This document shows, one piece after another, positions 1 through 21,654 of a DNA stretch of 64,000 nt (position 1 is its first letter; each line of letters opens with the position of its first letter). The notes under the pieces were generated by a model that had not been told where the DNA came from, did no database searches, and was given only the letters and a program-made list of their open reading frames with translations. Source of the DNA: Octopus sinensis (taxonomy: Eukaryota); assembly GCF_006345805.1 (NCBI RefSeq), contig NC_043003.1, positions 89,714,001 to 89,778,000 on the forward strand, in the 5' to 3' direction. The position numbers were made by a program, and so were the translations under genes.

Positions 1-184
1 TGATAAATGCATCTTAATAAGTGAGAAGAATTGCATATATCTGAACTATTTCAAAGAAAAGCATAAATTTAATGTTTAAAATAGCTTTAACCAAGGAATG
101 AGATCTAACATTTCTTCACTTTTTCCAGAATTTCTTCTCTTTATTTTTTTTTTTTGCGAAATACGGAGTTTATGATTCATGTGT

Positions 185-700
185 GAGTGTGTGTTCTTGA
201 TACTCGTTTAGAACAAGTAGTTTTACACCAATTACACTATTTTTTCTTAGTTTAAAGGCCGTGGACTGAAGATGTGAAATTTCCGAAGCCTCTCCCCCAC
301 CCCCCTTTCGCGAGCGCGCATTTTTTTCATGATAGTCGTTTAGAGCAAGTTGTTTTACACCTATTACGCTGTTTTTGTTTTTGTTTTTGTGCCCGGTTCA
401 GACGCTTTCGGAAATTCCCGATATAAATATTCCGAGGCCTCTCCCCCACCCCTCTTTCGCGAGAGCGCATTTTTTTTTGTCATATTCGTTTAGAGCAAGT
501 TGTTTTACACATATTACACTATTTTTTTTTTTGTTTTGGTGCCCGGGTCAGCTCCTCAGACGCTTTCGGAACTTCCCGATGTGAATTTTCCGAGGCCTCT
601 CCCCCACCCCCCTTTCGCGTGCGCGAATTTTTTTTTTCATATTCGTTCATAGGAAGTTGTTTTACACCTATTACACACATTTTTTTTTTGATTTTCTGAT
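185..700. repeat. Tandem array of about three ~150-bp units of a dispersed repeat family
   Basis: CTCTCCCCCACCCC-TTTCGCG-polyT-TTCGTTTAGAGCAAGTTGTTTTACAC recurs near 289, 439 and 597. The same unit occurs at 12190-12325 (-) and 13440-13725 (+). Confidence 0.8.
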
Positions 701-1087
701 ATTTGTTACGCCCTATATTAACCGATTTACTACTGCACTAGTCTCACGAGACGGACGTAAAAAGCTTTTTCCTGTCCGTAACTTTTCATTTTCGAACTTC
801 TTTTGGAATTTTTTTTTTTTCAGACTTTAAACATCTGGGATTATGATTCCTATAAAAATTTTAAAATATGCGTAACCTTTTAAATTTGAATTTCGAAAAT
901 AAAAAAAATTGAAAAAAAAAAAACAGGAAAGACGGGGTTGGCAAATTTTCTCTTTTGTGTGTGGCGCCATAATCTACGATTCTTAAAACATAATAGTAAA
1001 AAAAAGGGCGGGGAGTTTTTTGGCGTACTAGACATTTTCCGAATATTCTACATGAATGTCGAAATGTGGAATTTTATTAAATCATAC

Positions 1088-1802
1088 CTGGCAAAACCCA
1101 ACGAACAATTGCAGCTTCGAAAGCTTCTTTATTTCGATGTTCAATTGGCACTAGAAAACATTTTTCACTTCCTCGTTCAATTCCTCCAAAAACCTTATAT
1201 CCTTTCACATGTTTTTTCCCGTTAGGTTTAGGTTTGGAAATTGTGGTCACATCTATTTCGACGACTTTTGGTTTACCAGTTTGTGAATCGAAACCGCCTA
1301 TCTCCGGTGGGTCGTCACCTAATTCAGTCGGATGGTCTTCTAAGAATCCTTCCAATAATTCTCGGATATACTGACACAAATCATCGATAGTGTTTACATT
1401 GACTTTTGTTTCGTGAGCTATTTCAGAATTTAGATGCTCTCTGGACCACATATACATAAGCCATATAAATGTTGTCAGTGAGACGTCACTATCCTCAAAA
1501 ATCGATCCGATGCGGACTGACTGAGTGAAGGAGTCCAGATCACATTTCCATCTCTTTCCGTCAATATCTTCCGGATGATCGACCAGTGTACATAAATTGC
1601 TACAGGTGGAACACTTCACGCAATTGCTAATTAGCCGGTGTTTGGCTAACCATGTAATTGCTACTTCATTTGTGTTAGTTTGGGGGATTAGATCAAAGAA
1701 TTTCCATGTTTCTTGTCGAATTTCTTGGTCATTCATGACATCACTGCATATTGTTGTTGGCTCTGCTTGTCCGGCAGGATCAATCATTTCAGAAGAAGTC
1801 AA
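1088..1802 (-). CDS. Merlin/IS1595 (ISXO2-like) transposase-derived exon; in-frame ATG at 1787; gene probably continues beyond the left edge of the window
   Basis: Open frame with CSTC..WKC zinc ribbon, SVRIGSIF, an HTH-like region, IGG..KVVEID, VFGGIERGS and IVRWVLPG, all typical of ISXO2/Merlin transposases. Acceptor tttgttttataaaAG (1803-1804); donor CAG|GTATGA (1087) falls exactly at LP-G. Confidence 0.8.
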
Positions 1803-2369
1803 CTTTTATAAAACAAATAATTCATGTGTCAACTACAAGCAATGTGTTTATATGGAATTTTTGTTTTAGTAGTGTTAGTTTCGTATTGCTTACCGGCAGA
1901 GCTTTTGTCACATTTTGTATTACAGGCTGTTAGCTTCGTATTATTTCATTAAATTTCATTGCAAACCAGGACATCAACGAATCCTTCATATGTTTATCAA
2001 TTACAAATTTGATGAAGATGTATTTCTCAATAATTTTGGTTGTAGGAAAGAATAAAAATGATTTAAAATTTTGACATAAGGCAAATTTAGGGGTAAGATT
2101 GAAAACAACATATTACATGCATGATAGTAATGCCTGTTTCATTGATTATATGATGTGAAAACTAGAGTACACAACTCTCTCTCTCTCTCTCTCTGTACAC
2201 ACACACACACACCCCACACCACACTACACTACACCATACATTACAAATCACATCACAACACACCACCCACACATCCATCCCCATATCTTCACACCTACAC
2301 ATACATACACGCACAAGTGCAGACCACCAGCCCTCTTTCGCATGCACATACATACTCTCTTATATACAC

Positions 2370-2610
2370 ACGCACCTTCGTGTTGCGGGTCATCTTTACC
2401 TTGTTATCTTCCCTACTTTCCCTCTTGTGTTTGATTCTTCTGTCCGGCACTAGTCGCCATGATAGATCGTTAGCCACTACACGCATTTTTTCTGTGTACC
2501 TTTCTGTAGAAGAGCGTAGGCTCGAAACGTAAAAGACTTTATCTATTCCTGAGCGTTATACTAATACATCTGTTTGTTTTGTACACCACCTGTCTTCGTA
2601 AACTCTCCAT
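2370..2610 (+). mobile_element. Penelope-like element pseudo-LTR remnant with minimal hammerhead-like motif (2500-2535)
   Basis: CTTT-CTGTAGA-A-GAGC-GTAG-GCTC-GAAAC-GTA-AAAG; the downstream TTCCTGAGCGT..AATACAT is shared with 28855-28877. Confidence 0.55.
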
Positions 2611-2629
2611 ATATATATAATAATAATTA

Positions 2630-4797
2630 ATTCTTTTTATTGGCCACAAGGGCTGACACACATGATTAGTAAACATAAAGGGACAAAACAGGACGAAAGG
2701 TTACAAAGGGTTTTGTCCGTTTTTGAAAAAATTCGAGTAAAAACTGTTTAACAACGAAAGATTGTAACAATGAAAAACTCCCAATAGGGGGAGGCGCTTC
2801 GAAAGGTTCCTGGTGGAAAAAAAACCCCTTAAAAGCCAACGGGAGCCTGGTAGAGAGCCCCTTTCTCCTTTTATAAAACCTTTTTCAATCACAGGCGAAA
2901 CCTGAGAATTGGTCCATTTATACTGGCCATTCTCACACAATTCACCCATCTTTCAGAAAACTTACTATCGGACAGCACTCTCCTCTCTAACCTCATCTTC
3001 CTTTCCAAGTGAAACTTGAAATAGTTGATGAAGCCTTGACCAAAGAGGAAAGTGTCTGACTTTAGCCCTTTCAAACGGGTCCACCATACAACCTCTTTCG
3101 CCACAGCCACTAGGCACAAGATAACGGCCTCACCCTCCTTGTTAAAGGAGGTCGGCGGGGCAATCTTCACTATGGATTCGGCTGATAGCCGGATCCGTCC
3201 TACACGTGACAGTAGCTGTTCGACATAAACCCATGGTTCAGCAATACTCGGGCACTGGACGAGTGTGTGCAGAACGGTTTCGTCATCCTGGCAATACCTC
3301 GGGCAGGCCCGGCTGACGGCACTTCCGTGCCGGTAGAGTCTATCCCGAACAGGCAGAGCCCCTCGGTAGCACTGCCAGGCGAGCGACCTCTGGAAATTAT
3401 CCATTGGCCCCGGCCCGAAAGTCCTTCCGAACAGACCGCTCAGTTCGTTATCGTCAATGCCTAGAGTTTCCCCGAGAATGTCGTCGCATTTTTTCTCCAC
3501 TAACCCTCTATAGAACACTAGAGTGGAGCTGAAACCGATCGCATTGCCCGCCTGGTGGAGGGCGGAGAGAGCTTGACGGCACTCGAGGTGCCAAGCGCCC
3601 TTTCTCGGTCTACGTTTGATCCAGGTCTGCAGCTCTGTCAAGGAGACGAGCTGCGGAAAGTCGCGTCTGACAAAAGACGACCACACCTGTTCACCGTCTA
3701 GGAAACGCTTGAGATGTCGCAGCCTGAGCGCATGTCTGCGCATCAGTAACCACGGCATGCCAAGGCCTCCATTCAGCGATCGTTGACAGCAGATAGATCG
3801 CCTCCTAGATCGCGCGGGATACCCCTCAAAGCCTCCAACTTGCGCAGTAATGGCTCGATAGTCAATATGTACAAGAGGGAGGAGAGAGGGCATCCTTGGC
3901 GGACCGAACGCGAGATGTCGAACGGTTCCGAAAGGTGACCGTTCACCCGTATCACCGAGCAGATGTTGCTGTATAAAGCAGTGATCCACCCGCGGAAGAC
4001 TGGACCGAAGCCGGCTGCCTTGAGAACAGCTGCCAGGTACCGATGGTCGACCCTATCGAAGGCTTTACTCTGATCTAAGTTGATCAAAGCCCCACCCGCA
4101 CCAGCGTCGTTACCCACCCTCTCTATGATGTAGCGCATGAGATGGAGGTTGTCGTGTATCGACCTGGTTGGCACGGTGCATGTCTGCGTCTTGCCGACCA
4201 GCTTGTCCAAGACAAGCGCCAATCTCTTGGCTAGCACCTTGGCCAAAATCTTCAACTCTGCATTGAGCAGAGTGATGGGCCGAAAATTCCCTATAACGTC
4301 CCCCTTGTTTGGGCCCTTTTTTTAGCAAAGTCACCACCCCTCAACAGACAAAAGCAGGAATTCTCCCATTTTGCTGCCAGTTGCAGTAGACGTTTGCCAA
4401 CAGGCCCGCAAACAAGTCTGGCATTGAAGTGTAAAGCTCGTAGGGCAGACCATCCAAACCTGGTGATCTACCTCTCGTGCAACTCTTCATTGCTTCCTCC
4501 ACTTCCCAGGCAGATATCGGTCCTTCGCAGCACTCTGCCTCGCTGTCCAAGAGTTGCGGTAGGCCGTCCAGGTACACACCGAAGTCTGCACCATTGTGCG
4601 TTCCACTGCACGTCCCAAACAGTTGAGCAAAGTGCTGCTGAAACACCGTACACATCTGTTTCGGTTCGGTAACCTCGCGCCCGTTCTGGTCCACCAAAGA
4701 CCGAATGGTTGCTTTGTTGCCTCGCTTTGCTTCCGCCACGCGGGCCCATTGAGCGGCTCTAGTCTCCTCCCCACTTAGCCTTGTGCGAGCACTGATA
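2630..4797 (-). mobile_element. Tx1/L1-clade LINE, 5'-truncated and internally deleted (copy 1)
   Basis: ORF2 pieces: RSPGLDGLPYE, RPITLL, DQSKAFDRVDH, VRQGCPLSSLLY, GGLGMP and a zf-RVT CPRYC..HTLVQC. The YADD segment is missing (junction near 3787). 3' end CCCTTGTGGCCAATAAAAAG. Confidence 0.92.
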
Positions 4798-4799
4798 CC

Positions 4800-7620
4800 G
4801 AGAAAGGGGAATGGCACACGGTGCCTCCAAAAAAGAAAAGGAGGAAAAAACAAAAGGACACATAGGGGAAGCATGAATAAATAGTGCTTCCCAACATCAA
4901 CAACAACAACACACACTCACAACAACAAACAACAACAACACTTTCGACACCACTACTACCACTGCCACACACATCAACACCAACAGACACGATTACAGCA
5001 ATAAACACAAAAAATGAAAAACTCGTTGCATACCTAAAAGACAAAACAAGTACAACCTCTACCAACCTTCTATAAAAGGACGAGATGGAAGCCCTGCTGC
5101 TGGTATTAGCTGGGTGAGAAAGAAGCAAGAGTACTTGATGGCACTCCACATGCCATTCACTGGACTTTGGTCTATGCCTGATCCATGGTTCTAGCTTGCT
5201 AAGACTCATGAACCTGGGAAATAACGATCTGACAGAGACCACACCTGTTCACCATGTAGAGTCACAGATGCCTCAGCCTCAATGCATGTCTGTGCATCAA
5301 CAGCCAAGGTATCCCTAGCCCACCCTTTAGCGGGTGCTGGCAGCAGACATAGCACCTTATAAGAGGACTTCTGTCTTTCCACAAAAAGTCAAAGAGGAGA
5401 CGTTCCACCTTGAGCAGCCACGAACTGGGACTAGGCACGATGGTTAGGCAGTAGGTAATCACAGAGGCAATAAACACCTCTGCGACCTCCCTCTCTTTCA
5501 GAGATAGCCACCGCTCAGACCAGATCTGAGTTAAGTAGGTCACCCAACTCATCACTTTGCTCCAATTCTTCTCTGTCTGGAGGTCTGGACCAAACCAAAC
5601 CCAATAGCATTTTAACCAGCCTCTCTGTCCAACATCCTACAACGGTGTTAGGAGGTATCAACTTGACCTTCCAGGTGCCAAGTTGCAAACCAACTGATTT
5701 ATCCCGGTTGACTTTTGCTTCTGCCACCACCTCATATTCCTTCATAACCTCTCCCACATTCTATAGGTGATCCATCTTGGACACAATGATGGTGATATCA
5801 TCCACAAATGCAGTGACCACCCTTCCTCAACCAACATCACACAGGATGCCCCTCAGACTCTCCAACTTCCACAGCAAAGGCTCCAGAGCCAATACATACA
5901 GAAGTGGAGAGAGGGGACATCGTTGACAAACTGAGCACTTGATTTTGAACAGCCTTGACAGGAAACCGTTCACCCAGATGATTGAGTCAATGTTGCTGTA
6001 CAAAACTGCGGAAGATAGGGCCAAGTCTGAACATCACAAGGTACTGATGATCACCCCTATCGAATGCCCTAGACTGGTCTAAATGGAAAAGAGCCCCACC
6101 CATGCCAGCAGATCTATTAACTCTTTCTAAGTTGTAGTGGAGACTGTCGTGTATGGATCTGCCAAGAATGGCACAAGTTTGTGCCTCCCAAACAAGTCCA
6201 CCCACAACATGCACCAACCTTTTTGCTAATACCTTGGCCAAAATCTTCAACTCTGCATTAAGCAGGGTGATGGGCTGGAAATTATCTATATACCCCTTGT
6301 TTGGGTTCTTTCTAAGCTGCATCACCATTCTCAGGCTTACAGATCCGGGGATAAACCCATTCTGCCAGTAGGTGCCCAAACAAGTCTGGCATACTACAAT
6401 AAAGTTTGTAGAGGAGACCATCTAGACCTAACGACTTATCCCCGCTGCAATCTGCCAAAGCCTCCTCAACCTCTGCAGCTGTGATCAGCCCTTCACAGCA
6501 TTCTGCTTCCTGTCGTGAGAGATGCAGAAAATGGTGAAGAAGTCCGTGAGGTCCCTCCTGCACTGCAGCCCAACGCCCCACCTGTAAAGCAGTGCAAAAT
6601 GCACCCGAAAGACCTTGCACATCTTGGGTTCATCTATCAAGTTCCCCTGATCATTCGTCAAAGACTTTATTGAATTTTTATTTTCTTGTTGAGCCTCTAT
6701 CACATGGGCTCATCCAATAGCTTTGATCCCTTCTTGTCCCATTGCACGTTGCTTGGCCCTGACTATGCATCCCTCATATTTAACCTTGAGGTATTGGTTT
6801 GAAACCAATCTCAGGGTGCAGAGCCAGATCCCAGTACTTCAACTAGAGCCTTAACTAAAGCTCGTTCTATTTTTCTTAACAATTAACTTTTTGCTGGAGG
6901 ATTGATATTTTATCCTCCAATCCAGTTGTGATGGCAACCACTAGCTAAGCTGGATCCACCTGGTGGTTATATCTCCTACCCTAATCTTGGAAGTCAGCCT
7001 TCCAAGATAAGTGGGTAGGAGCACCACTTCTGCTGTTTTAAGTGAGTCAGTGGACACTTGCTTGACTTTCTTCTTGCTTCTATAGTGAACCTCAGTTGTC
7101 ACAAACTTGGATCCTCTGGTTATGTGCTCAATGTCGTTTTATTTGTTTTTAGACATAACTCTACAGCTTGTCTAGAAGCAATATCCAGTCTCTTGTTTTT
7201 TATTAGAAAGGATTTATATATAACCATATGCCTTGTGCGCAGTTTCACTGGGAGGGGTAATTTTTGTTTCACTCCCCTCGTTTTACCATTCCTTTAAATT
7301 TTTGAAGCTCATCATTGTCACAATTTATATCCCTTTTTTTAACTCCTGCAGTGTTGGTGAAATTGGTTCTTTTCCCTTTGATAAATTCTTCTTCGGTTGG
7401 CATATTCTGTATTTTCATAGTAAATCCGCTTGTACTAGGACCAGCTTCAACATTGGTCCTGACTTTCACTGGTGATTTATCCATTTCACCAGAAAACTTT
7501 TTTTTTTCAAGAATAATTTTCCCCCTTCACACAAAAGATAACAAAATCTGCTCTCAGCAGGCAACTAAGTGTTAGAAAAAAACGCTATTAAAAAATGGTT
7601 CAACAGTCAAACAAGCAAAT
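4800..7620 (-). mobile_element. Decayed Tx1/L1-clade LINE (copy 2) with ORF1 remnant (~6900-7484) and ORF2 remnants
   Basis: KSLGLDGLLY, FQPITLLNAELKILAKVLAKRL, DQSRAFDR, CQRCPLSPLLY, FVDD, GGLGIPWLL. ORF1 segment IEHITRGSKF..LLPTYLGRLTSKIRV at ~6968-7135. Outer boundaries approximate. Confidence 0.85.
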
Positions 7621-8159
7621 CAAACAGCAAAAATATTACTAACCATAAGTAAAAATCTCAACCATGATCCTGTAGTGATGGAATCAATTGTGTGTCCCTG
7701 TTTATTTTGATTGCAATATACAGAAGAAAAAAAAACAGACAAGTTCACATAAAACTCGTGCATGCCCTGTCACTGGCAGTTTTCAATTATTTAAACAAAT
7801 TTATAGCATTTGTTATATATTGATTAGGAGTTCAATACACAAAACCCTCACTGTAACTTATCCAAATTTTTTAATACTTTCTTTTTTATATTTCAAAACT
7901 TCAAAACAAAATAAAATTCAGATTGCAAACAATGGTTTTAAGAAGCATAAAATTCTTTTTTTTTTAGATTTGTAAAAATAAGCCAAAATTTTAAAAACTA
8001 TGGAAAGTGGGCTGCCAAAGTTCCACTCCTTCCCTTCCCTTGGAAAATATTAAACAACGGTATTTAAAATATACACATCAGAGAAGATCATGGTTTACGG
8101 CACGTTAGATATTGTCTGATTCTATTCTAAACGAACACCCTTACATTTAATGAATAAAA

Positions 8160-8530
8160 TGCAGATAAGCATGGCTGTGCGGTAAGCTTGTTGCCCAACC
8201 ACATGGTTTCAGGATCAGTCCCACTGCATGACGCCTTGGGCAAATATCTTCCACTGTAGCCTAGGGGTGACCAAAGCTTTGTGAGTGGATTTGGTAGACG
8301 GAAACTGAAAGAATCCTGTCGCATGTGTATATACATATATATATACACACCACATACACACATATGTATCTGAGTGTGTGTCTCCCCACAATTACTTGAC
8401 AACCGATGTTGGTGTCTCTATGTCCACGTAACTTAGTAGTGCAGCAAAAGTACTAAGCTTACAAAGAATAAGTCCTTGGGTCGATTTCTTCCGCTAAAAC
8501 CTTTTAAGACGGTGCTTCAGTATAACCAGT
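8160..8530 (+). mobile_element. tRNA-derived CORE-type SINE (two-part, internal microsatellite)
   Basis: TGGCTGTGCGG A-box-like head, CCTTGGGCAA CORE-like motif, GTGAGTGGATTTGGTAGACGGAAACTGAAAGAA; matches the other copies in the window. Confidence 0.8.
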
Positions 8531-8789
8531 CAAATAATTTCATTTAAGAGTTGTCTCCCCTCAACCATATGCGTTATAAATCTTGGCGGAAATAAGTCCG
8601 ACTGGCGTTCTCTTTCCTTTACAAGAACCGCTGCTTATTTCAGCATACCTGACGGTATAATGGATCTATTTTATACAGTGGTCAGGTGCACAACTTCTCG
8701 GCAAAGGGTAAAAGCGGAGACAGAGAGCAGACGTCAAGCAAAGACCATTTCTGAGCCCTTAAGCATCTTCAATTGAAATAACAGTTTCT

Positions 8790-9400
8790 AATAAAGGCTT
8801 CTTGGTCACAGGAATTCTTAGACTATAAGTACTTTTTGCAACAATTTTATATGGTGCAACAGTGCCTTCATCAAATTTGGTGTTTTTTCAAAAAATCTGA
8901 AGTTAAGTTGTTACTCAGAAACATTTTTGAAATTATTCACTGATTCTATTAGAAGTTTCCTTTTTAAAAGATAAAGAAGACTTGGAAGTTTTCAACCTTC
9001 ATTCAAATGAGTCGATTACATAAGGGACACACTTCAGTTTTCCGATCAAAACGGTTTTCATTAAAACCACAAGACAGGTTATGAATCTGGATAACACTTT
9101 CTTCACTCCACTTGATGTTACTGATTGTTGTGTAATTACAACAAAAGGTTTTTAAATATCTGATTTCTGCTATCTCTGTATCATAGTATAAGTATATACA
9201 TTGAAATACATGGTGCTGTTGTTTTTGTCTGAGATAAGCTCTTCGTTGGCTGGATCTTACAAGCATGAAGTGGATTCGATCCACCATAGCCGAATTTAAA
9301 TTAACATTGCACACGGTGGAACAAGACCACCAACTAAATCTATTGTTCTCAATGATATATCTATCCGTCTGGGTAGTTATATAAGCAAGCACACCCCAAG
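8790..9400 (-). mobile_element. Old LINE C-terminal remnant (tentative)
   Basis: HNLSCGFNENRFDRKTEVCPLCN resembles the C-terminal CCHC region of non-LTR ORF2; many stops. Confidence 0.35.
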
Positions 9401-9769
9401 CAAAAGGCAGTTAGTGGGTGACGACTCAACGAAGTCTGGCTGACCAGCTAGAACCTTGGTCAGAAGGAGAAATGAAGTTTACTGTCAGCAACTGTGAGAC
9501 ATCCCACTACCTCTAATTCTGTTCTTTTACATTATTCTTTCTCTATATATTTACTACTAAACGATGAAGAGGGCACAAACATGCTTTTGGATTTATAACC
9601 TGCCCGTCAAAGCAAGGTGTTGTAATGTAACGGTAAATAAATACCTTCTTAAAACTTTATGCATTGTTCATCTTTCACGTCCTACAGTATGCAATTATAA
9701 CAAATTATGGTCAAACCAGCTGACTCCAACATTTTATTATATTGTTTACAAATCAAAATCTCCCGTTGC

Positions 9770-10050
9770 ATATCTAACCAAAAATAAACTCCTGCACCTG
9801 GCTTTTGTTGACTTGGAGAAAGTCTTTGAGTCTCCCACTCCCTTATATGGTAGTCAATACGGAAGCTAGGGATAGATGAGTGGTTGGTGAGAGTTGTACA
9901 AGGATGCTGTTCATAAGGTAAAGGTTAGCAATGAGTATAGCAAGGAATTGAGAGTAGAAGTAGGGGTTTGCCAAAGATCAGTTCTCAGCACACCTCTTGT
10001 TCATCAGTCCTCCAGGCAATAAGAGGAATTTAAGGTAAGCTACCCCTGGA
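9770..10050 (+). mobile_element. Decayed RTE LINE RT fragment
   Basis: YLTKNKLLHLAFVDLEK; DNA similar to 22367-22665. Confidence 0.8.
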
Positions 10051-11266
10051 GCACCACTTCAAAGAATTTTTTTAGTTGACCGTATCAACCCCATTACTTT
10101 TTTCTCATTAATTTAATCAGCCTCTTCTACCAGATCACTATTACACACCAGCACTGATTGTCAAGCAAGAGAGGGCACAAAGACATCTGTATACACACAA
10201 CAGGGTTCTTTCAGCTTCCATCTACCAAATCCACTGAAGGATTTGGTTGCCCCAAGGCTATAGCAGAAGACACTTCTCCAAGGGGCAACGAACCTAGAAC
10301 AATGAGGTTGAGAAGCAAGCCTTTTTTTTTTTAAATAACATTTTAGCACTTTTTTCAGAGAAGGGTACAGACAAGAGAAACTGATCTCAGTGCAATCTTC
10401 CATCAGAGTATTCTTTCAAGCCTTCACATGTTCTCTACACTTACAGCCATGTAGCATTGCTATTCATACACAGGGATCATACAACCTCCCCTTCTAAGAG
10501 GCCTTTTGTTATCAATAGAGGTAGCAACTCCAAACCAACAATATTACTAATTCTAGATTCTGAATATTTGAAATAATAGTAATGGAAGGATTAATAGAAT
10601 GAACACAAGGTAAATCATCCTTTAATCTGAACTAATACTCATCTGGCTTTCCACAAGTCAACATTAGGGGGGAAAAAAAAAAAAAAAAAAAGTCTTTTGG
10701 TATTTAGTTTATCTTTGACATAAGAAATATTAGCATCCCAATGGGAAAAAATTTTAAGTTCACATTTGGCACCAAACATGACAAGAAGCAGTAATTACAC
10801 TAATTTTTTTTATGGTACCACTTCCTTATAACACTTTAAAATTATTTATCCTGCACCTACCCATAATGCAATATTTTTGCTCCAGTTATGTAGGCCCCCG
10901 CTAGGTGTATGGTACATAAGACTTAAGGCAGTGCTCAAGCATGGCAGTAAATAACAAACAAAACCTACTATTGAAAATATTGGTTAAACTGGCAGAATTG
11001 TTAGCACACCAGCAAAAATGCTTAGTGACATTTCAGTGTGTTCCGAGTTTGATGTAATCAATTTACACTGAATATTGCTGGCCAAACAATATTTATTGCC
11101 CACAGGGAGAAACAAGGACAGAAAAAGGGATTAAGCCGATTACATCAACCCTAGTGCATAACTGGTACTTATTCAATTGACCCCAAAAGGATGAAAGGCA
11201 AAGATATAAAACAAAGACAAGATTAAGAGATTTTATTGGAATAATTCAAAAAGTGCTCAATCAACA

Positions 11267-11399
11267 TTATAATACTCCAGCAGCCTTTATTGTCACTGTT
11301 TCTTTCAATGCACCACTAGCGGTGCCATAACTTTCAATTTTCTTAACAAAATCATAATTTTCCACTACTTTACCAAACACAACGTGCTTACCATCCAGC
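11267..11399 (-). CDS. PPIA: Cyclophilin A-type PPIase, exon 5 (last)
   Basis: tttacAG|G-LDGKHVVFGKVVENYDFVKKIESYGTASGALKETVTIKAAGVL-TAA; AATAAA at 11237-11232. Confidence 0.95.
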
Positions 11400-11753
11400 C
11401 TGTAAAGAGAAATAAAAGCAAAGCTCAGAACACAAGAAATACACATGGATGAAGCAATATTTTGAAAATATGAAGTTTTTATTTTGGAATGAAGAACACA
11501 AAAATAGATGTTGAGCCAGTGAGAAGACTTAGCATTTTGCTGGGATTAATCCAATGAATTGACAGCAAAACAATTGCTTCGATCAGAATCGTTTACCTTT
11601 AAAATGAAAAACATGCGTTCTGCCAAGCCCGAGGAGGGAACTTTCGGAAAATTCATAGCTGATTTTCCCATCATAACTCTGGGCAAAATGGATATATTTT
11701 TACGGAATCACGTTTTTGGTTATGAAGGATCTGATTTTGAAAAAATTTTCAAA

Positions 11754-11918
11754 TAGGCATAGGAGTGGCTGTGTGGTAAATAGCTTGCTTCCCAACCACA
11801 TGGTCCCGGGTTCAATCCCACTGTGTGGCACCTTGGGCAAGTGTCTTCTACTATAGCCTTGGGCCAAACAAAGCCTTGTGAGTGGATTTGGTAGACGGAA
11901 ACTGAAAGAAGCCTGTCG

Positions 11919-11960
<42 letters not shown>

Positions 11961-12146
11961 GTGTGCGTGTGTGTGTCCAACATCGCTTGACAACCGATGC
12001 TGGTGTGCTTACGTCCCCGTAACTTAGTGGTTCGGCAAAAGAGACTGATAAAATAAGTATCAGGCTTACAAAGAATAAGTCCTGGAGCCGATTTGCTCAA
12101 CTAAAGGCGGTGCTCCAGCATGGCCAAATAAAAGAGCAAAGAGTAA
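11754..12146 (+). mobile_element. tRNA-derived CORE-type SINE in cyclophilin intron 4
   Basis: A box TGGCTGTGTGG, B box GGTTCAATCC, CCTTGGGCAAGT, internal (TA)n, tail GGCGGTGCTCCAGCATGGCC. Confidence 0.9.
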
Positions 12147-12679
12147 AATGCCACACAGCCTCCACCATCTTCTGGCAAAGCAGCTTCCTCTAGACGAATA
12201 TGACAAAAAAAAAAATGCATGTTCGCGAAAGGGGGTGGGGGAGAGGACTTGGAAGATTCACAACGTGAATGTTCCGGGTCTGACCCGGGAACACACACAC
12301 AAAATTTTTTTTAAATTCTTTATGCACACAGTTTGTGTTATTAAATTCTCTTATAGAAATAATTATAACCTTGCGTTGCACATTTCTTGAGTACAAACAG
12401 CAAGTCCATTTCTTGGGTATAAACAAGCAGTCCATGTTTTAGGTATAAACAACAAAATTACAACTTATTATCTTCAGACCTGGCTGAGGTTTGCACCATC
12501 TCATTCAGGCATTTCTTACCCTTGTCTCTCTTCTCTAAAAATTATGTTCAATCCTTCCCTGAATGGTATCCCTCTGGAGCTTCTTCTCTACTCATGTCTT
12601 TATAGCACATGTTCACTTGCAATGACTCAAGAGGAGCATTAGAACACATTGAATGGTATAATCTTTGGTACACCACTCT

Positions 12680-13020
12680 TCTACTTGTTTCAGTTGTGCT
12701 AGGGTTTGCCTTAAAGGATTTTACTCAAACAAATCAACCCCAATGCTTATTTTTTTTAAACTCTCGTACTTATTCTGTTGGACTTTTTTTTCTGAACTGC
12801 TTAGTTACAGGGATGTAAACAAACCAATGCCAGTTGTCAAGTAGTGAGGGTGGGGCACAAAGACACACACACACATACAAAAGACTTCCACAGTTTCTAT
12901 CTACCAAATCCTCTCACTGGGCACTGGTCAGCCTGGGGTCAGGTAGAGTAGAAGGCACTTGCCCAAAGTGCCATGCAGTGGAACTAAACTTGAAACCATC
13001 TTAACCACACAGCCATGTCT
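12680..13020 (-). mobile_element. Older copy of the same SINE family, opposite orientation
   Basis: Reverse-complement similarity to 11754-12146. Confidence 0.7.
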
Positions 13021-13902
13021 AACAAAAAGAAAGAGAACCATTGAGATGGTCATGGTTAGGCTACCATTGGTTCATAAGTTTACTTGATTTGAGCAAAACT
13101 TTTGGCTAAACTACAACATGAAAAGATCAATGTAGTCCATAGCCAAACAACCTCTCTTCTTTTGTTAGGGAGATTTTAAACACAAGGGTTACTGTTTGGG
13201 AGAGGTCTTACTTCTTTACTGTTATGGATATCATATTTTCTTGTATTATATAGTCTGACTCAATTCAGCAGTGCCAAACCAAAAGTATAGAAACTATTAT
13301 TTCACTTCAATGGTATTGATATTAATAACCTCATCAACAAATACTAAAGATGGTGCTATGGCCTTTTCTTTGATAATAACTTTCTTGCTTATTTAAATTC
13401 AATTCATTGCACACTTGCCTTGAACCAACCATTTCGCTTTGCGTGTGTATGTTCTTGATAATTGTTTAGAACAAGTAGTTTTACACTACTTTTTTTCCAG
13501 CCCAGGTCAAACACTATAGTTTAAAGGCCATGGACCGAAGATGTGAATTTGTTTTGTTTTTGTGCCCGGGTCAGACCCAGAACATTCACGATCTGAAATT
13601 TCCGAGCCCTCTCCCCACCCCTCTTTCTCGAGTGCGCATTTTTGTCCTATTCGTTCAGAGCAAGTTGTTTTACACATATTACACTATTTTTTTAAATTTT
13701 TATGACCGGGTCAAACGCTATAGTTTGACCCCAGATTCTCCATAAAATATATTCACTTTCTTTTAAGTTGTGAGGGGAAAAATCGAATCTTGTGAATCCT
13801 CCAAAAGTCCCTCCTCGGTTCGTTTGCGCAACTTCTCCCGCAATATACATCACGGAGTAAAGTTGGAAACCTATAATGGTAACAATGACAAACAGGTCTT
13901 AC

Positions 13903-13978
13903 CAGTCAGTCTTTGCAGTTGTGATGAAGAACTGAGAACCGTTGGTGTTAGGACCAGCATTGGCCATAGACAACATAC
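13903..13978 (-). CDS. PPIA: Cyclophilin A-type PPIase, exon 4
   Basis: [26 protein letters not shown]; AG/GT boundaries, 76 nt, phases consistent. Confidence 0.96.
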
Positions 13979-14056
13979 CTATAAAAGACAAAAAACAGTT
14001 AGACGAAGTACAAAATAAAGAGCTTTTATTACAAAACTACTTAAATTAACACTTAC

Positions 14057-14242
14057 CAGCAACTAAATGTTTCTCCTGGAAGTTTTCGTCTTCAAACTTA
14101 TTACCATAAATACTTTTACCGCCGGTCCCATTTCCACGGGTGAAGTCGCCACCCTGAAGCATGAAACCAGGAATTACACGATGGAACTTACTGCCCTTGT
14201 ATCCAAATCCCTTCTCATGAGTACAGAGTGCTTTGAAGTTTT
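14057..14242 (-). CDS. PPIA: Cyclophilin A-type PPIase, exon 3
   Basis: [62 protein letters not shown]; 186 nt, AG/GTAAGT. Confidence 0.97.
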
Positions 14243-14323
14243 CTGAAAAATAAACATCCCGTTATTTTTAACTAGAACAAATACTAACATATTTCGGTAC
14301 TACTAGCGAACAGTGGTCCCGGT

Positions 14324-15038
14324 GCGCGCACTCGTTAGTCGTAAGTAGTCGATCCTACAACGACTTTTTAACCCTAGTTTCTTTATAAAGATAGGGATCT
14401 TTTCGCTTTGACCAGCAGATTTTTTAAATAACTTCTTTGTAACTAAGCACTTTTAAACTTCGTATACTGGTAGTGTGTTACATAAAACATCCTTTTCTCT
14501 TGGCTTTCTTGAGAAAATTCTGTGGTTTGTAAACTATTTGTTGTTTAATTTCTTGCATTTCGACAATTTCAACCAATCAATGACGTCTAAGTAGTCGATC
14601 CTACGACTTGTAAATATTTTTTTTTTTTTTTTTACACAAAGTAAATAAAAAGCAAATAAAAAATTGAATTTCTTTGGAGACAAAATGGAAAAAGTGGGAA
14701 GGAATGTTTTGAAAGCATTCTGAAGCCCCTTTCACATTCAATTTAAATCAAATGAACTTCATTTTATTTTATTGTTTGGTGGCATTTTCGAATGAATTGC
14801 AAGAACTGTGAGATATTCAATTTTTTATTTACTTTGTTCGAAAAATATTTAATTCGTGTAAGAAAATTATATACATTTAAAAAAAAAAACTGTTTATAAA
14901 AAATAATTTATTTACTTAGTTTAAAAAATTATTTACTTTGCGTTTTAATCGCGCATGTGCGAATCTATTCATTTGCATACGCCCAAGTCGTACGATCTAC
15001 TACTTACGTCTAGCCAGCCCAGATGCGCGGGTGCGCGC
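14324..15038. mobile_element. Foldback/MITE-like element in cyclophilin intron 2
   Basis: GCGCGCAC..TAGTCGTAAGTAGTCGATCCTAC..GACTT is inverted at 14985-15038 and repeated directly at ~14587; internal inverted arms ~14612-14670 and 14815-14850. Confidence 0.65.
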
Positions 15039-15081
15039 TCCGTAAAAAAAATGTCAGTAAAGAATTTAAAATTTCACTCAC

Positions 15082-15112
15082 CAACAGTTTTCGGCACAAT
15101 CTTGTCATAGAG
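15082..15112 (-). CDS. PPIA: Cyclophilin A-type PPIase, exon 2 (31 nt)
   Basis: ctcttcAG|LYDKIVPKTV-G|GTGAGT. Confidence 0.93.
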
Positions 15113-15189
15113 CTGAAGAGAAAAGGAAAAAAAAAACACAAAACAATAACATTACTATATTAAATTCTAAACATTAAGTATATAAAAAA

Positions 15190-16217
15190 AGGCTCACATG
15201 GCGGAGATGTAAATGGAAACCCCACCTTTTTTTTCATTTCTTTTTGACGGAATCCCATTTTAAGTTTTATGGAGATTCAGAGTCTCAAAAACATTTTCAA
15301 AAACTGCAACTTCAAAATTTTACCCCCCCCCCCCCATAATTTCATTTTTCTGAAAAAAAAAAAAAAAAAAAAAAAAATTTTTACGTACAAAAATACAGAA
15401 ATTATAATCCTGGGAAATAAAAAAAACCTGGTCTCTCGATTCTACGGTCTTGGTCTTCAAGCAGGCTATTCACATGCTAGAAATGACAGCCAAATCTCAC
15501 AAAACGGCGATGACAAAAGAAATATGTAATCAATCCTACATTTCTGCAAAGATTTCTTTCAGAGCAATTTCCAGCAGTAATATCAAAATGTAAAATTAAA
15601 GTGTTAACATTTGAGGAAATATTGAAGCAGCTTGCTCCAGAGAAAAGAACGGACTTTTTGAAAACTGCCACAAGTGAAACGGGTTTGCACGAGGTCTTAA
15701 TGAACACTTTCATTTTACTGCCACAGTATCTCTTTGCTATTTTTCGAAAGAGTTTGCGGTTATATTTCTGCTCTCATATTTTTTGCAACTTTCACAAAAA
15801 AAACAACCCACCCCACACACAATTTCACTTTATATTCCTGCGGGAAATTCCTTTCTGCAGAAAGGTGAATAGATTGATTACAGATTTCTTTCCTGGTTAT
15901 CGCAGTTGAGATTTGGCTGTTATTTCTAGCATGTGAATAGCCTGCAATGAAGGCCAAGGCCGGAGAATCGAGGAGGTTGGGGTACTTTTTTTTTTTTTTT
16001 TTTTTATAGAATTGAAATTTTTACAATTTTTCAAAATAATTTTTGTACGTATTTTGGGAATAAAAAATCCGGAAAAAGTGAAATATGAAGGAATGAGGGG
16101 AAGGGAAAAGTTCCGATTTTAGATTTTTTTTTTCAGAATCGGAATCTCCATAGCCTAATTCCTGGGATTCCGTAATGGAAAAAAAGGGTTCCGTTTATAT
16201 CTCTGCCATGTGAGACT
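15190..16217. mobile_element. ~1-kb foldback element with long imperfect inverted arms in cyclophilin intron 1
   Basis: CTCACATGGCGGAGAT.. versus ..ATCTCTGCCATGTGAG; GCAGGCTATTCACATGCTAGAAAT (15461) is mirrored at 15920-15945. Confidence 0.85.
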
Positions 16218-16525
16218 AAACTTGCCCCATTCACAATTTACGAGAGAGTAAGAAGAAAAAAGAAGAAGAGCCATTTTGTATAATTGGAGAAAATTCTGTG
16301 CGCGCCATATTTAGAGCAGAAGTGGGAGCAAGTGAAAAAGAAAATCATCATTTTATGGTGAGATTTAAAATAAGTTCGAAAAAAAAAATGTAATTAGTAA
16401 TCTAAACTAGCAAGTTCTAGAAAAATCGTTGCCAGTTTCAAAATTAAAAAAGAAAAACATTCTCGCAGGCGACGCGTTAAATTAACTTAAATGAAACGAC
16501 GTTAAAACGAAAAAAAAGACCTTAC

Positions 16526-16612
16526 CTCAAATATAATCCTCTCGCTTCCGTGTCTTCCTCCCTCACCAATATCAACATCAAAATAGCATCTAGTAGAACC
16601 TTTATCAGACAT
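16526..16612 (-). CDS. PPIA: Cyclophilin A-type PPIase, exon 1
   Basis: MSDKGSTRCYFDVDIGEGGRHGSERIIFE|GTAAG. The five exons total 513 nt = 170 aa plus stop. The symbol is family-level; orthology is not proven. Confidence 0.93.
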
Positions 16613-16689
16613 TCTGGTAAAGAGCGAGCGACAGAAAAAACGGAGAATGATTGACTTCTTTGAAGATGCGAACACTGCAAAGGTACAAC

Positions 16690-16730
16690 GGTAATTGGAT
16701 GCAGCACGAATCACGCTCTATTTATATATA
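16690..16730 (-). promoter_or_regulatory. Putative TATA box and initiator of the cyclophilin gene
   Basis: TATATATAAA (16730-16721) lies ~30 nt upstream of CCAATT (~16695) and is followed by a pyrimidine-rich 5' UTR. Confidence 0.55.
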
Positions 16731-18609
16731 CGAGCCGTTCAGGAAGTTTCTATTATGTTCTGTCGGTTTAAAATTCGTCTCTTTCCCACATATTCTTCAT
16801 TTCAAATTCGTTTCGATTTTGAAAATCTTGTAAAATACATTTCTTTTATTAATCAAATATGGTTTTATAATCGGTAATTTTATTTCAATATAGGAACTAT
16901 TTTGTTTAGCGTAGCTTTTCGTAAATTCGGTCAGTTGGCGTGCTGGATGTCCTCAGCAGACAAAATGTTGACCCTGTATCTCTCTTATAATGGTTGCTCT
17001 GTAATAAATCATTAATTTTCTTTTACGAAAAAAAAAAATTCACAAGTTAACAATATAAGAGTTATGTTATATATACACACCTACTTATATTTGATTATTA
17101 ATTCCAGAGCATTATATAAGAAATCAATGTATATTATTATTTCATCGCATATTATGCATTCGAGAAATTTCCTCGTGCTTCTTTATTAGAAGAAAGCACT
17201 TCAGCCTTTATGGAATTCGTTTTACGTTCTGAAAATATTTCCATATCGAAGCTATTAACTATTAACAGTGTGGTAATTATACAATCAGAAACGGGAACCT
17301 AGTTGCCGCTTAAATAGCTGGTCGTCGGTATTTTTACTGTCCCACGTGTTATGTCTGAATTTTAAAATTGGTAGAATATGAACTCGCGGGCAAAGCTATG
17401 AGATTCATGCGTTTTTGCAAAAGAGCTTTAGCAATGAATGGAGTGAAAAAGAAATTACTATAATTATAAACCATCATTGAAATGTCTTGGACAAAAAATC
17501 GACTTAATAGTATTTATTTACCTCTACTTCAATCTGAAGTATTTAATAAATTATGCAAAATATGAATTGTTTTAATTTAAAGTTGTAGGTATTATTAAAT
17601 CATTGAAAAAAAAAGGTATTTTATTCTTTATGGTCACAATGCTTTTCTGGAGAGATTGTTGTTGAGGAAAGTGACAATGAAACAAAACTGAGGAGCATTT
17701 AAAACCATCGTATGACAGGGATGGCAATTAAAACCTCAACAGAAAAATTTATGTGGTCGCTCTACGAGAAAGTGGAATGTCCTTCAATCACACGACTATC
17801 TGAAGGAAAAACACGAACAATTTAGTTTTTATATGAATTTTCTAGGAAAAGAAAGGCGGATGGTTATGACTAGAATTTCTGTTCCATGGTCTGCTGGTTG
17901 AATGCGGATATGGACTAAAACAACAATACAATCTATCTCAGTACTACTAGAATGTGCAGGAAATCTCACACACTGGCGACATGATTGTCTATCGCTCAAT
18001 AATGGTGCAGAGGAAAAGAAAGGCCAATTTGACTTATTTCCAGTTATTTATTATAGAAAATAGGCTTATTTCTTAGATTCAAAAAATACCTACAGCTGAA
18101 GGGAACGTAAATGGTCCATGTTAGCAAAAAGGGGTTACTATTTCTAAAATATGATCGTCGCTAGCGGTAGAAGTGAATTCTGGTGTTGCACTCGGTTTCT
18201 TTATTCTTCCACATGATTTCAAAATATTTTTCATTCCTTCTGTGTCCGCTTACAATATATCAATTCATTGTATATGTATAAATGCGTAATGTATAAAAAT
18301 ATATCATGCATATCGCCCAGCTGTAAGGAGTGATTTTAATGATTTCAATAATTTATATTATGATTTTTTGTAATTGTATTACTATCTTATATGTATTGAA
18401 TTATAATGTATATATGTATGCTATTAAGGTTCTCATTTTTGTTAAATGAATAAATAAGTCAACATTCTAATATCCGAAAGCTGATGATGGCATAAAAAGA
18501 AAATGACTCCCCAGACACAACAGAATATACGGATATATATATATATATATTAGAAGAAATGAGGTATTCAGAAATTCGGGTGGTTTTATATTTACAGATA
18601 TTTATTTGT

Positions 18610-18973
18610 ATACTCTTTTACTTGTTTCAGTCATTTGACTGCGGCCATGCTGGAGCACCGCCTTTAGTCGAGCAAATCGACCCCGGGACTTCTTCTTTGT
18701 AAGCCCAGTACTTATTCTATCGGTCTCTTTTGCTGAACCGCTAAGTGACGGGGACGTAAGCACACCAGCATCGGTTGTCAAGCAATGCTAGGGGAACAAA
18801 CACAGACACACAAACACACACATACATATATACGACAGGCTTCTTTCAATTTCCGTCTATCAAATCCACTCACAAGGCATTGGTCGGCCCGGGGCTATAG
18901 CAGAAGACACTTGCCCAAGATGCCACGCAGTGGGACTGAACTGGGAACCATGTGGTTGGTTAGCAAGCTACTT
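18610..18973 (-). mobile_element. CORE-type SINE interrupted by an insertion; its head resumes at 21338-21372
   Basis: Colinear with the intact copy at 46855-47252; breaks at GGTTAGCAAGCTACTT. Confidence 0.92.
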
Positions 18974-21337
18974 TATTTCATCTAATTTGCCACAAGGGCA
19001 TTACACAGATGGCAGCTTTGCGGGCTGGACATGGACATTCATGGTATGAATGATGATGATGATGATGGGAGAAGACGAAAAGCGCCCGCCAACTTTCGCT
19101 TCTCTAAAACAATGTTCTTTTTTCAAAACACAATGAGGCAATAAACCTCTTACTTAAACAACACAATGCTCAGAATTCTTTCTTTTTTAAAACACACAGA
19201 AAGTCACATGTTTCACATTTTCTAGACTCGTTTAGGTTATCCGGCCGACCAGTATCCTTGCTTCATTGAAGCATGCACCCGGTTCCAGGCCGGACCACAC
19301 AGGTATAAATTTATTGGAGTCCTCCGGGAAGGAATTCATGATCCTGCACAGATCACTATCCCATAGGACCTCTGCAGCCACCTGCGAAGGCCACTCAGGA
19401 TCCTCCGTGCAGGACAGAAGCCCCTCCTTTCCATTTTCTTTACTTCGTTTTCTATGGTTCCTCCTTTGTGGAAGAGGACCACATATTCATCCTCCAGCGG
19501 CACACCCGCCTGAGGAGGATTGGGAAACGCCGTCCACGTGTCACCACCCGCCAGCGATGTCCCGTTTTTCTTCTTTCTTTTTTTCTTTTTTCCCTGGGCC
19601 GCGAGAGGGTGAGGTTCCTGTGACGCACGCAACAGGTCCTCCTTTTATCCCGCAGCCCTCGGGTCCTCCGGTGGGCTACCATTGTTGCACACCTTTCGTT
19701 TTCGTTTTTTGGAGGATGTAGAAACCTCCTCGTCATCCTTCTCCTTCTCTCCCTCCATTGAGGGAGCAGGGAGAGATTCCACTATTAACTGCTCCAGGAT
19801 CTTATTTTGGTCCTTGAGGCAGTTTTTCTTAATGTGGCCGGTCTCCAGGCACAGGTGACACTTGGGGGGGGGCGTCCTTCGAGCATCACCGGATACCTAG
19901 ACCCAGCCATCCTCGAAAAATCTGGAAAGACCAGACTTCCGACTGATTGGGTCCATAGGGTCAAAACAGCTTCTGACCCCTCCCAATCAGCCGCAGGCAA
20001 CACTTTCACATTCAGCAGCTTGGTACTGCTACCACCCAGACCCCGGCGGATAGAGTCCTCTATCCACTCAGGCTCAACTGCGGGTGGCAAACCGCAGATC
20101 CAAGCTTTCAATAATTTCTTTCCACAGTAGCTTGGAAGAAACATTATTTCCTCGCCCTCGAGGGGCTGACTTGCAAAATCGCAAGCTTCTTGGGGGGAGT
20201 CAAATAGCAACCAGACCATTGCATATTTGACTCCCCGTGAAATAAATTTAATGGCTGGCATGTAATCTGCCAGCTCATTCAAAATCATGGCCCTCGGGAA
20301 GAATAAGTCCTCAACACAATGGTCTTCCTTTCAAGCTCTTTTAACCATTTTTTGGGAGGTGTCAAGTCCCACACAAGAAATTCCTTTGCCATTTCAACAC
20401 AAAGTTCAATTACAGTTCAAAATGTAAGAAAATAAAATAGGACACAAAAAAAGAAGAAGGAAAGACACAACAGAAGGGAAGAAATAAAATAAAAATAACA
20501 GTTCAAAAAAAGTTCTTTTTTTTTTAATTAAACGAAAGCTTTGAAGAAGAGAGTTCAAATCCAGGCAAAGAAATAAATTAATTTTTGGCCGAAAAGGTAC
20601 TCCTGGCCAAATGTACATAGGTTCCTTGGTATGAATCGTTTTTACCCATAATTGGTAAAAGAAATCCAATGAATCCAAACACAATACTGGCTACAGCCAA
20701 CGGTAACTGCAACAGCAACTGTAACAGGTTCTAATCATTCGGGCGAGGATACGCCCCTCTACTGTTTTTTTTTTTAAAATGAATCCAAAAAATTCACACT
20801 AAATTCACAAAACAGCAGCCGCCAAGAGCAGGTGAAATTGTCCCAGTAATGGGCGAAATTTGTTAACAAAAAATTATAATATAACAAATTACACCCAGCT
20901 CAACCGAAAACAAATCCACCTACCTCTACGGTCTTATGTTGTTCTTTTTTTCCAGTTCAATATTGGCCAGAGCCAACACACTCACGTCCACCTTGCAAAA
21001 AGAGTCCTTCCTGCCTTGGTAATCCACAGACACGAAGATAATTTTCGCAAAGAAATTAATTTTTGCGGAGGGGCTACTCCTCCTCAAAAACACAATTCTC
21101 ACTGCAAAGTGAGTCTTTATAGGTGGCCACAGGCAGGCAAATGTCTGGAGCAGAGTGGAGTCTATTACTCACCAAAAAATATTAAATACATGGCAACAAA
21201 CTCCACTAAGCCCTCAAGAAAATACAACAAATGCCTACCTGTAGTCGAGTCTCAAATTTCAATATTTCACGACGAAAGACGTGACATCAAGCAGCAAGAA
21301 CTCTCCGCCAAAAACAAACACGTCCGTCTCCAACAAA
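18974..21337 (-). mobile_element. Full-length ORF1-only non-autonomous retroposon (HAL1-like), 2364 bp, 16-bp TSD
   Basis: TSD GGTTAGCAAGC(T/C)ACTT at 18958-18973 and 21338-21353; ~950-nt 5' UTR, one disrupted ORF, 3' end CCCTTGTGGC..AATAAA; no endonuclease or RT sequence. Confidence 0.85.
19232..20392 (-). pseudogene. Tx1-like ORF1 protein (RRM-like region plus CCHC zinc knuckle), frameshifted
   Basis: MAKEFLVWDLTPPKKWLKELERKTIVLRTYS / LNELADYMPAIKFISRGVKY..YPVMLEGRP / KCHLCLETGHIKKNC..LVGRIT*. Frameshifts near 20295 and in the G-run at ~19865. Confidence 0.8.
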
Positions 21338-21577: not shown

Positions 21578-21596
21578 TATATATATATATAATATG

Positions 21597-21652
<56 letters not shown>
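21378..21652. repeat. (TA)n microsatellite
   Basis: Seen directly. Confidence 0.98.
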
Positions 21653-21653
<1 letters not shown>

Positions 21654-21654
21654 T

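Follow-up and report, generated by a model that had tools for sequence, protein, structure and literature searches.

A spliced Merlin-type transposase gene of Octopus sinensis, probably domesticated, as a candidate DNA-binding-poor partner of its paralogs

The exon at the left end of the window and its transcript

The 64,000-nucleotide stretch of Octopus sinensis DNA analysed here (the window; contig NC_043003.1) carries near its left end, on the minus strand, the first coding exon of LOC115214311, a spliced gene derived from a Merlin transposase. The translation from the ATG at 1787 down to 1089 is identical, at 233 of 233 positions, to residues 1-233 of XP_029639343, a protein of 330 amino acids whose gene was annotated already, as uncharacterised. 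The surrounding stop-free frame, 1077-1805 (-), has 242 codons; in 300 shuffles of bases 1-2900 the longest such frame had 184 codons and none reached 238. The original prediction, made from the letters of the DNA, had pointed to a 715-nt stop-free frame (1802..1088, which is open throughout) as part of a spliced, host-co-opted transposase gene, a view that is upheld by RNA-type contigs, an ortholog in Octopus bimaculoides, the state of the catalytic triad and the family tree. We consider it very probable that LOC115214311 is a domesticated transposase that has lost cutting. That this cut-dead protein acts as a DNA-binding-poor partner, dampening or redirecting its basic sisters, is a more tentative proposal, to which we give slightly less than an even chance.

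Over its full length the 330-amino-acid protein matches Pfam family PF12762 (DDE_Tnp_IS1595; 30.4 bits, cut-off 27). Pfam searched with the exon translation by itself gave no match, and a tblastn search for the downstream exons found none within the window. Inside the first intron, four copies of a tandem unit of 132-157 bp occupy 194-700, a multicopy repeat by run coverage, adjoined by an AT-rich element at 700-1030. These repeats of about 150 bp were considered as a Merlin subterminal array, an idea that is unsupported, the repeats sitting within the intron.

Four sequencing runs, taken as RNA on a program's guess, were aligned to positions 1-20000 of the window. Their behaviour is that of RNA: the introns of the cyclophilin gene nearby are left out, and the depth over the unique flanks at 5337-7337 is 0-5. 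In three of the four (X12, X14 and X16, from three studies) one contig each matches 1085-2163 and then goes on with letters that are absent from the window (302, 238 and 274, respectively), 293 nt being required beyond the exon to complete the protein; the fourth, X6, covers 912-2163 unspliced at depth 2. The match stops at 1085 and not at 1088 because the next exon would start GT-AC (protein G-T-H), so that its first three letters would be the same as those of the intron, GTATGA. The strong CAG/GTATGA donor of the original prediction is present at 1088/1087 and looks used, so that the gene shows, in these three runs, the transcription and splicing that mark a domesticated gene. Beyond the donor the protein reads LPGTHIVSG, not the ISXO2-type LPG-x-I-x-SD that had been anticipated. 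As for the acceptor proposed upstream, an AG does stand at 1804-1803, yet each of the four contigs continues across it to 2163 and its use is unsupported; the contig alignment holds 27 further joints beyond those listed, and minor use of the 1803 acceptor is possible. The read-through peptide preceding the start of the paralog product P0006 looks like a translated pyrimidine tract, which would be compatible with acceptor use. The transcribed 5' stretch (1803-2163) contains 11 upstream ATGs, and the true 5' end of the transcript is obscured by a microsatellite at 2164-2272. In all four runs this non-coding stretch also carries a 14-nt insertion relative to the window at 2034-2038, an allele or an assembly difference.

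Table 1. Features of the LOC115214311 locus in the window
Feature	Position	Strand	Remarks
First coding exon	1088..1787	(-)	ATG 1787 to phase-1 donor; residues 1-233 (+1 nt) of 330; covered by RNA-type contigs
Splice donor GTATGA, start of an intron running past the left window end	1082..1087	(-)	contigs of X12, X14 and X16 depart here
Transcribed 5' non-coding stretch (5' untranslated region or retained intron)	1788..2163	(-)	continuous in contigs of 4/4 runs
AG suggested as acceptor by the original prediction	1803..1804	(-)	present in sequence; contigs continue across
Zinc-ribbon-like module, residues 56-103	1479..1622	(-)	C59, C62, C82 kept; fourth ligand position D85; net charge -4
Three-helix region, helix-turn-helix (HTH)-like, residues 104-150	1338..1478	(-)	net charge -5; contributes R116, E122, H125 and E126 to the predicted dimer interface
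7-residue insertion (TELG-DDPP-EIGG region)	1302..1322	(-)	octopus family marker; 6 residues in three paralog groups
Codon of D179, first acidic residue of the DDE triad	1251..1253	(-)	kept; G240 and D276 encoded by exons beyond the window

The neighbours of the frame that can be named are remnants of long interspersed nuclear elements (LINEs) and gypsy-type retroelements, not the decayed DNA transposons that had been supposed, and 8 of the 20 frames scanned match reverse transcriptase, zf-RVT, endonuclease, PHD-type or integrase families. A tblastn search of the window revealed no other Merlin remnant. Bases 1-8500 hold 39 inverted-repeat pairs, and none of the 25 longest is convincing; the gene itself ends (3') to the left of the window. 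Two decayed LINE copies are found directly upstream of the Merlin-derived gene, at 2889-7570 (-); further away are a 678-amino-acid LINE frame with reverse transcriptase and PHD (21593-23629 (+)) and gypsy-type integrase pieces (40946-42449 (+)). A highly expressed cyclophilin A-like gene (Pfam PF00160) occupies 10702-16700 (-), on the same strand as LOC115214311 and about 8.5 kb upstream of it, with introns at about 11399-13901, 13976-14053, 14243-15081 and 15113-16525.

Catalytic triad, octopus family and selection

The columns of the aspartate-aspartate-glutamate (DDE) triad were scored in 124 relatives of 230-450 amino acids, out of 162. D-D-E stands at the three columns in 82 of the 124, and the third triad E is found in none of the 19 octopus rows (16 D, 2 N, 1 S). 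LOC115214311 reads D179/G240/D276, and the change of the second D to G is also present in the O. bimaculoides ortholog. The catalytic degeneracy claimed from the exon is real, but its site is another one: the losses are D240G and E276D, in downstream exons, and not the change of VEIDE to VEIDV, although the exon translation does read VEIDV. The E lost in that motif, the one after D179, is conserved in 114 of the 124 relatives, yet column analysis puts it outside the triad columns, and VEIDV was rejected as a catalytic loss. The basic RKYxRG-type motif is altered as described (R186P, Y188P, G191K), and of 39 positions at which 85% or more of 68 DDE-intact relatives agree, 12 differ in the LOC115214311 protein.

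A structure model of the protein built from a 96-row alignment reached a predicted local distance difference test (pLDDT) of 92.2; a first model, from 15 octopus rows, had a pLDDT of 43.6 and was discarded. The model, with helices at 104-115, 120-127 and 131-151, matches integrase/transposase cores (Foldseek best E 1.8e-4; VIA best 1asu, Z 12.6, root-mean-square deviation 3.8, 141 residues aligned). D179 is located on the first strand of the core and G240 just past a later strand, with D276 on the helix that comes next; such a placement of the triad residues is expected for an integrase-type fold. As modelled, the protein keeps an integrase-type RNase H fold and has lost the active site; we consider it very unlikely that it cuts DNA. 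A sequence search of solved structures found no Merlin-like structure, its output being 2 weak unrelated matches.

LOC115214311 is not a lone gene; it belongs to a multi-paralog family. Three protein searches combined with cluster look-ups gave paralog groups of 327-333 amino acids: O. bimaculoides has eight, O. sinensis seven and O. vulgaris six. Their members are 60-65% identical to the LOC115214311 protein, and several have consecutive locus numbers. In a tree that left out 162-amino-acid rows and isoform models, the 22 octopus-type rows are monophyletic (support 100/100, stem 0.71), and species nest within paralog groups. An insertion before EIGG, of 7 residues or, in three groups, of 6, is present in every octopus row and, by pattern, in 0 of 162 other relatives. 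Genomic read-through products end LPGM in three lineages (P0006, P0012 and P0030/P0031), and alternative splicing occurs at the same LPG point in a fourth (P0003, P0013); the same donor is thus seen in four lineages. The closest relatives outside the octopus family reach at most 40% identity. The simplest history, we infer, would be that one Merlin element was captured, acquired introns and, by the time O. sinensis and O. bimaculoides split, had given rise through duplication to at least eight paralog groups. Protein searches (word-limited, lengths 130-583, 50% clustering) gave no family member from squid, cuttlefish or nautilus, and the family appears so far only in Octopus records and sequencing runs. 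Two Merlin proteins of Argonauta, the degenerate P0067 and P0212 with an intact DDE, were considered as orthologs and rejected: they group with other transposases, although a clade joining them to the octopus family is not rejected (p-AU 0.134).

Some records of the family have peculiarities of their own. The models P0007, P0009 and P0032 (LOC115219239 X1-X3), P0015 and P0019 are chimeric, with a first exon from one tandem paralog and final exons from another; among them, one has a duplicated 20-codon exon and one, from O. vulgaris, fuses a paralog to RPS10. Such chimeras could mean that exons are shared within the cluster, or could be artefacts of annotation. In the LOC115214035 group four sequences (P0036-P0039) end at residue 162, possibly as a pseudogenised ortholog in some species. 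Outside the family, other full-length Merlin-like proteins with degraded motifs (P0058, P0064, P0066, P0067, P0070, P0072, P0077 and P0078) come from scorpion, caddisfly, beetle, Argonauta and sequencing runs, and are candidates for independent Merlin domestications.

The O. bimaculoides ortholog of LOC115214311, XP_014784396, is identical at 319 of 330 positions and falls in the same 90% cluster; over the 233 residues of the exon it differs at 8. A complete 330-amino-acid frame is kept in both species. A third sequence, P0012, is identical at 210 of the 233 exon residues, and over seven ortholog pairs 93 of 2302 positions differ. The available portion of PMC10925132 gives a mean autosomal synonymous divergence (dS) of 0.123 for the two species. 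In 1000 neutral simulations of the exon at distance 0.12, a mean of 54 differences was obtained (minimum 31) and 15 pairs stayed stop-free; 8 or fewer differences occurred in 0 of 1000 at any distance of at least 0.048. A neutral distance of 0.015 reproduces the observed 8, which gives a rough ratio of nonsynonymous to synonymous divergence (dN/dS) of about 0.12, a figure derived from protein differences and not from a codon alignment. Since 8 exon differences are seen where some 54 would be expected neutrally, purifying selection on the exon is likely. A rate-free test over the seven ortholog pairs agrees for the family: changes are depleted at columns that the other paralogs conserve (21 of 934 conserved versus 71 of 1320 variable columns, p = 0.0002).

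Acidic module, predicted dimer and competing readings

Judging from the aligned proteins, LOC115214311 is alone among the paralogs in having an acidic N-terminal zinc/HTH module. Residues 56-103 have a net charge of -4 in its protein (P0001) and in the ortholog P0011; the values range from +1 to +9 over 17 paralog rows and from -1 to +12 over 68 DDE-intact relatives. Residues 1-15 carry -2 versus +4 to +6, and the whole protein -9. At positions 3, 11, 72, 84, 89, 93, 132, 139 and 147, where the sisters mostly have a basic residue, this protein has a neutral or acidic one, and positions 9, 70, 74, 83, 85, 99, 101 and 135 are newly acidic, a pattern shared with P0012. D85 stands at the fourth zinc-ligand position, which is C in 101 of 124 relatives and H in 15 of 19 octopus rows, while the other three ligand cysteines and the three-helix region remain. 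The presumed DNA-binding domain has kept its fold in the model, with its charge reversed and the fourth zinc-ligand position changed. The suggestion of the original prediction that we deal with a DNA-binding protein fits the sister paralogs better than the protein for which it was made.

A complex model of P0001 with the O. sinensis paralog P0021 (LOC115214512) scored 0.66, the best of three controls scoring 0.01; of the solved complexes, 51 of 78 attain the mark used for the dimer score, as do 2 of 108 mismatched pairs. The runs agree in at least 92% of contacts, the pLDDT of the partner is at least 81, and the predicted interface is symmetric and N-terminal (residues 29-38, 116, 122 and 125-128). 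Memory of a similar complex is a less likely source of this score, because no solved Merlin structure was found by sequence. The model supports a predicted dimer of the LOC115214311 protein with a sister paralog.

At this point we may propose how such a protein might work. Most paralogs would have retained a basic zinc/HTH front end, and are predicted DNA binders, whereas LOC115214311 would have swapped many basic residues for acidic or neutral ones and retained the predicted dimer surface. A mixed dimer would then have one working DNA-binding arm, not two, and through such dimers LOC115214311 would dampen or redirect the basic paralogs, or active Merlin transposases. Given domestication, we find this partner mechanism about as probable as not. 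A wider version, a regulatory network of octopus born of one tamed Merlin transposase, with at least eight combinatorially dimerising paralogs, most of them with basic DNA-binding arms and LOC115214311 as the off switch, possibly also poisoning active Merlin transposases, is rather unlikely; if true, no Merlin domestication would have been worked out in an animal before, and the network would be a counterpart, of transposase origin, to the system of basic helix-loop-helix (bHLH) factors and Id proteins.

Several observations weigh against the partner role, and some of them equally suit its main rival, in which LOC115214311 is itself a DNA-binding regulator, as first imagined, working as a homodimer with a changed target. 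The predicted interface is small (25-31 contacts) and was judged by a calibration set that is mostly microbial; the method also accepts proteins closely related to a true partner (10 of 12 in an older test); and the score cannot separate a mixed dimer from a homodimer, which by the model and its symmetric interface fits equally. Nor is the interface enriched in family-invariant residues (4 of 11, against a background of 116 of 330). The loop 181-196 (net +5) and the C-terminus (+9) remain basic, and R218, present in 68 of 68 DDE-intact relatives, is kept in the LOC115214311 group alone among the paralogs, so the protein may still bind nucleic acid; C59, C62, C82 and the three-helix region are kept as well. 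Octopus transcription factors derived from transposases of other superfamilies are moreover reported in the portion of PMC10027918 available. What speaks for the DNA-binding-poor partner over such a regulator is that the N-terminal module is more acidic than in any of the 17 paralog rows or 68 DDE-intact relatives, in a protein of negative overall charge, and that the usual C or H of the fourth zinc-ligand position has given way to D. A DNA-binding regulator is on these grounds a serious contender, though we regard it as somewhat doubtful. It is improbable, but conceivable, that the domesticated protein is a scaffold, a DNA mimic or an RNA-binding protein whose job is unrelated to paralog pairing: the acidic patch is conserved in three sequences, and 37 positions invariant in the octopus family and rare in transposases, many of them in the core and C-terminus, suggest a new surface; no analysis, however, suggests a partner of such a kind.

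Domestication itself must also be weighed against the possibility that the intron-bearing family is still mobile, or that the gene is a copy mobilised in trans. In favour of this, 191 Merlin-like proteins are given for O. bimaculoides in the part of PMC8101967 available, and 11 recent Merlin insertions of 2 families for O. vulgaris in that of PMC13282606. The 3' end of the gene lies beyond the search for terminal inverted repeats (TIRs), and the ortholog may sit on another chromosome. In O. bimaculoides it is on a 57-Mb sequence and three of its paralogs on a 110-Mb one, unlike in O. sinensis, where LOC115214311 and LOC115214512 share a 117.5-Mb sequence; we take this as a hint that the ortholog lies apart from the paralog cluster. 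Set against mobility are the D/G/D triad, one-to-one orthologs for 7 paralog groups with no species-specific bursts, the modest identity among paralogs, and a 90% protein cluster that holds only 3 members, which represent at least two species. We hold a mobile family to be very improbable. The same low weight is given to a neutrally decaying transposon relic, transcribed and spliced by chance. The upstream ATGs could block translation, and the coding status of LOC115214311 rests on sequence and on transcript evidence that consists of assembled contigs. The estimate of selection is likewise indirect, from protein differences compared with simulation and not from coding DNA; for LOC115214311 alone the rate-free test shows no avoidance of conserved columns (4 of 142 conserved versus 6 of 180 variable columns, p = 1; p = 0.10 when P0012 is included), and no O. 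vulgaris record is among the three cluster members. A relic would nevertheless have to keep its complete frame in both species and to differ as little as no simulation did at distances well below the published dS.

Comparison with known systems

The closest system is that of the Merlin DNA transposons, the eukaryotic branch of IS1595/IS1016 (PF12762). LOC115214311 resembles them in Pfam match, length, layout and integrase-type fold, and is up to 40% identical to DDE-intact relatives; it differs by its D/G/D triad, the loss of the RKY and HxxFV motifs and of the E that follows the first D, the presence of introns within the catalytic domain, the 7-residue insertion and one-to-one orthologs between species. 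The protein is already known as a listed Merlin match, since the part of the supplement of PMC8101967 available names XP_029639343 and four family members as such; the charge reversal and the dimer reading are new here. The same paper (2021), in its available portion, proposes domestication for protist Merlin genes of Stentor, Symbiodinium, Perkinsela and Bodo. Like the octopus family, these are conserved Merlin-derived frames without signs of mobility, but the case for them is argued mainly from missing TIRs and some synteny, and several have an intact DDE. The octopus family, by comparison, is animal and spliced, and comes with a cross-species estimate of selection and specialisation among paralogs.

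Other host genes derived from DNA transposases, namely ZBED, CENPB, THAP, HTH-Psq, FLYWCH and FHY3, likewise underwent lineage-specific expansions, also in octopus, according to the available portion of PMC10027918. They belong to other superfamilies, and the DNA-binding module of LOC115214311, in contrast to them, looks disabled; Merlin, IS1595 and ISXO2 have 0 occurrences in the main text of that paper. Our search found no published description of the octopus Merlin-derived family as domesticated, subscription journals and bioRxiv supplements lying outside its reach. Domestication of transposases is common, but for Merlin it has been proposed only in protists in the literature searched. Here, an animal lineage with still-active Merlin elements apparently retains a family of cut-dead, spliced and selected Merlin genes, one of which appears specialised as a non-binding partner, which makes it a candidate for a lineage-specific regulator or transposon brake in octopus. 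Dominant-negative partners are well known, as illustrated by the Id proteins, which act on bHLH factors, and by the KP repressor of P elements. The comparison with these is functional only and implies no homology: in each a pairing surface is kept, and DNA binding or catalysis is lost. In KP it is the catalytic part that is missing, with DNA binding retained; the LOC115214311 protein, by contrast, is full length.
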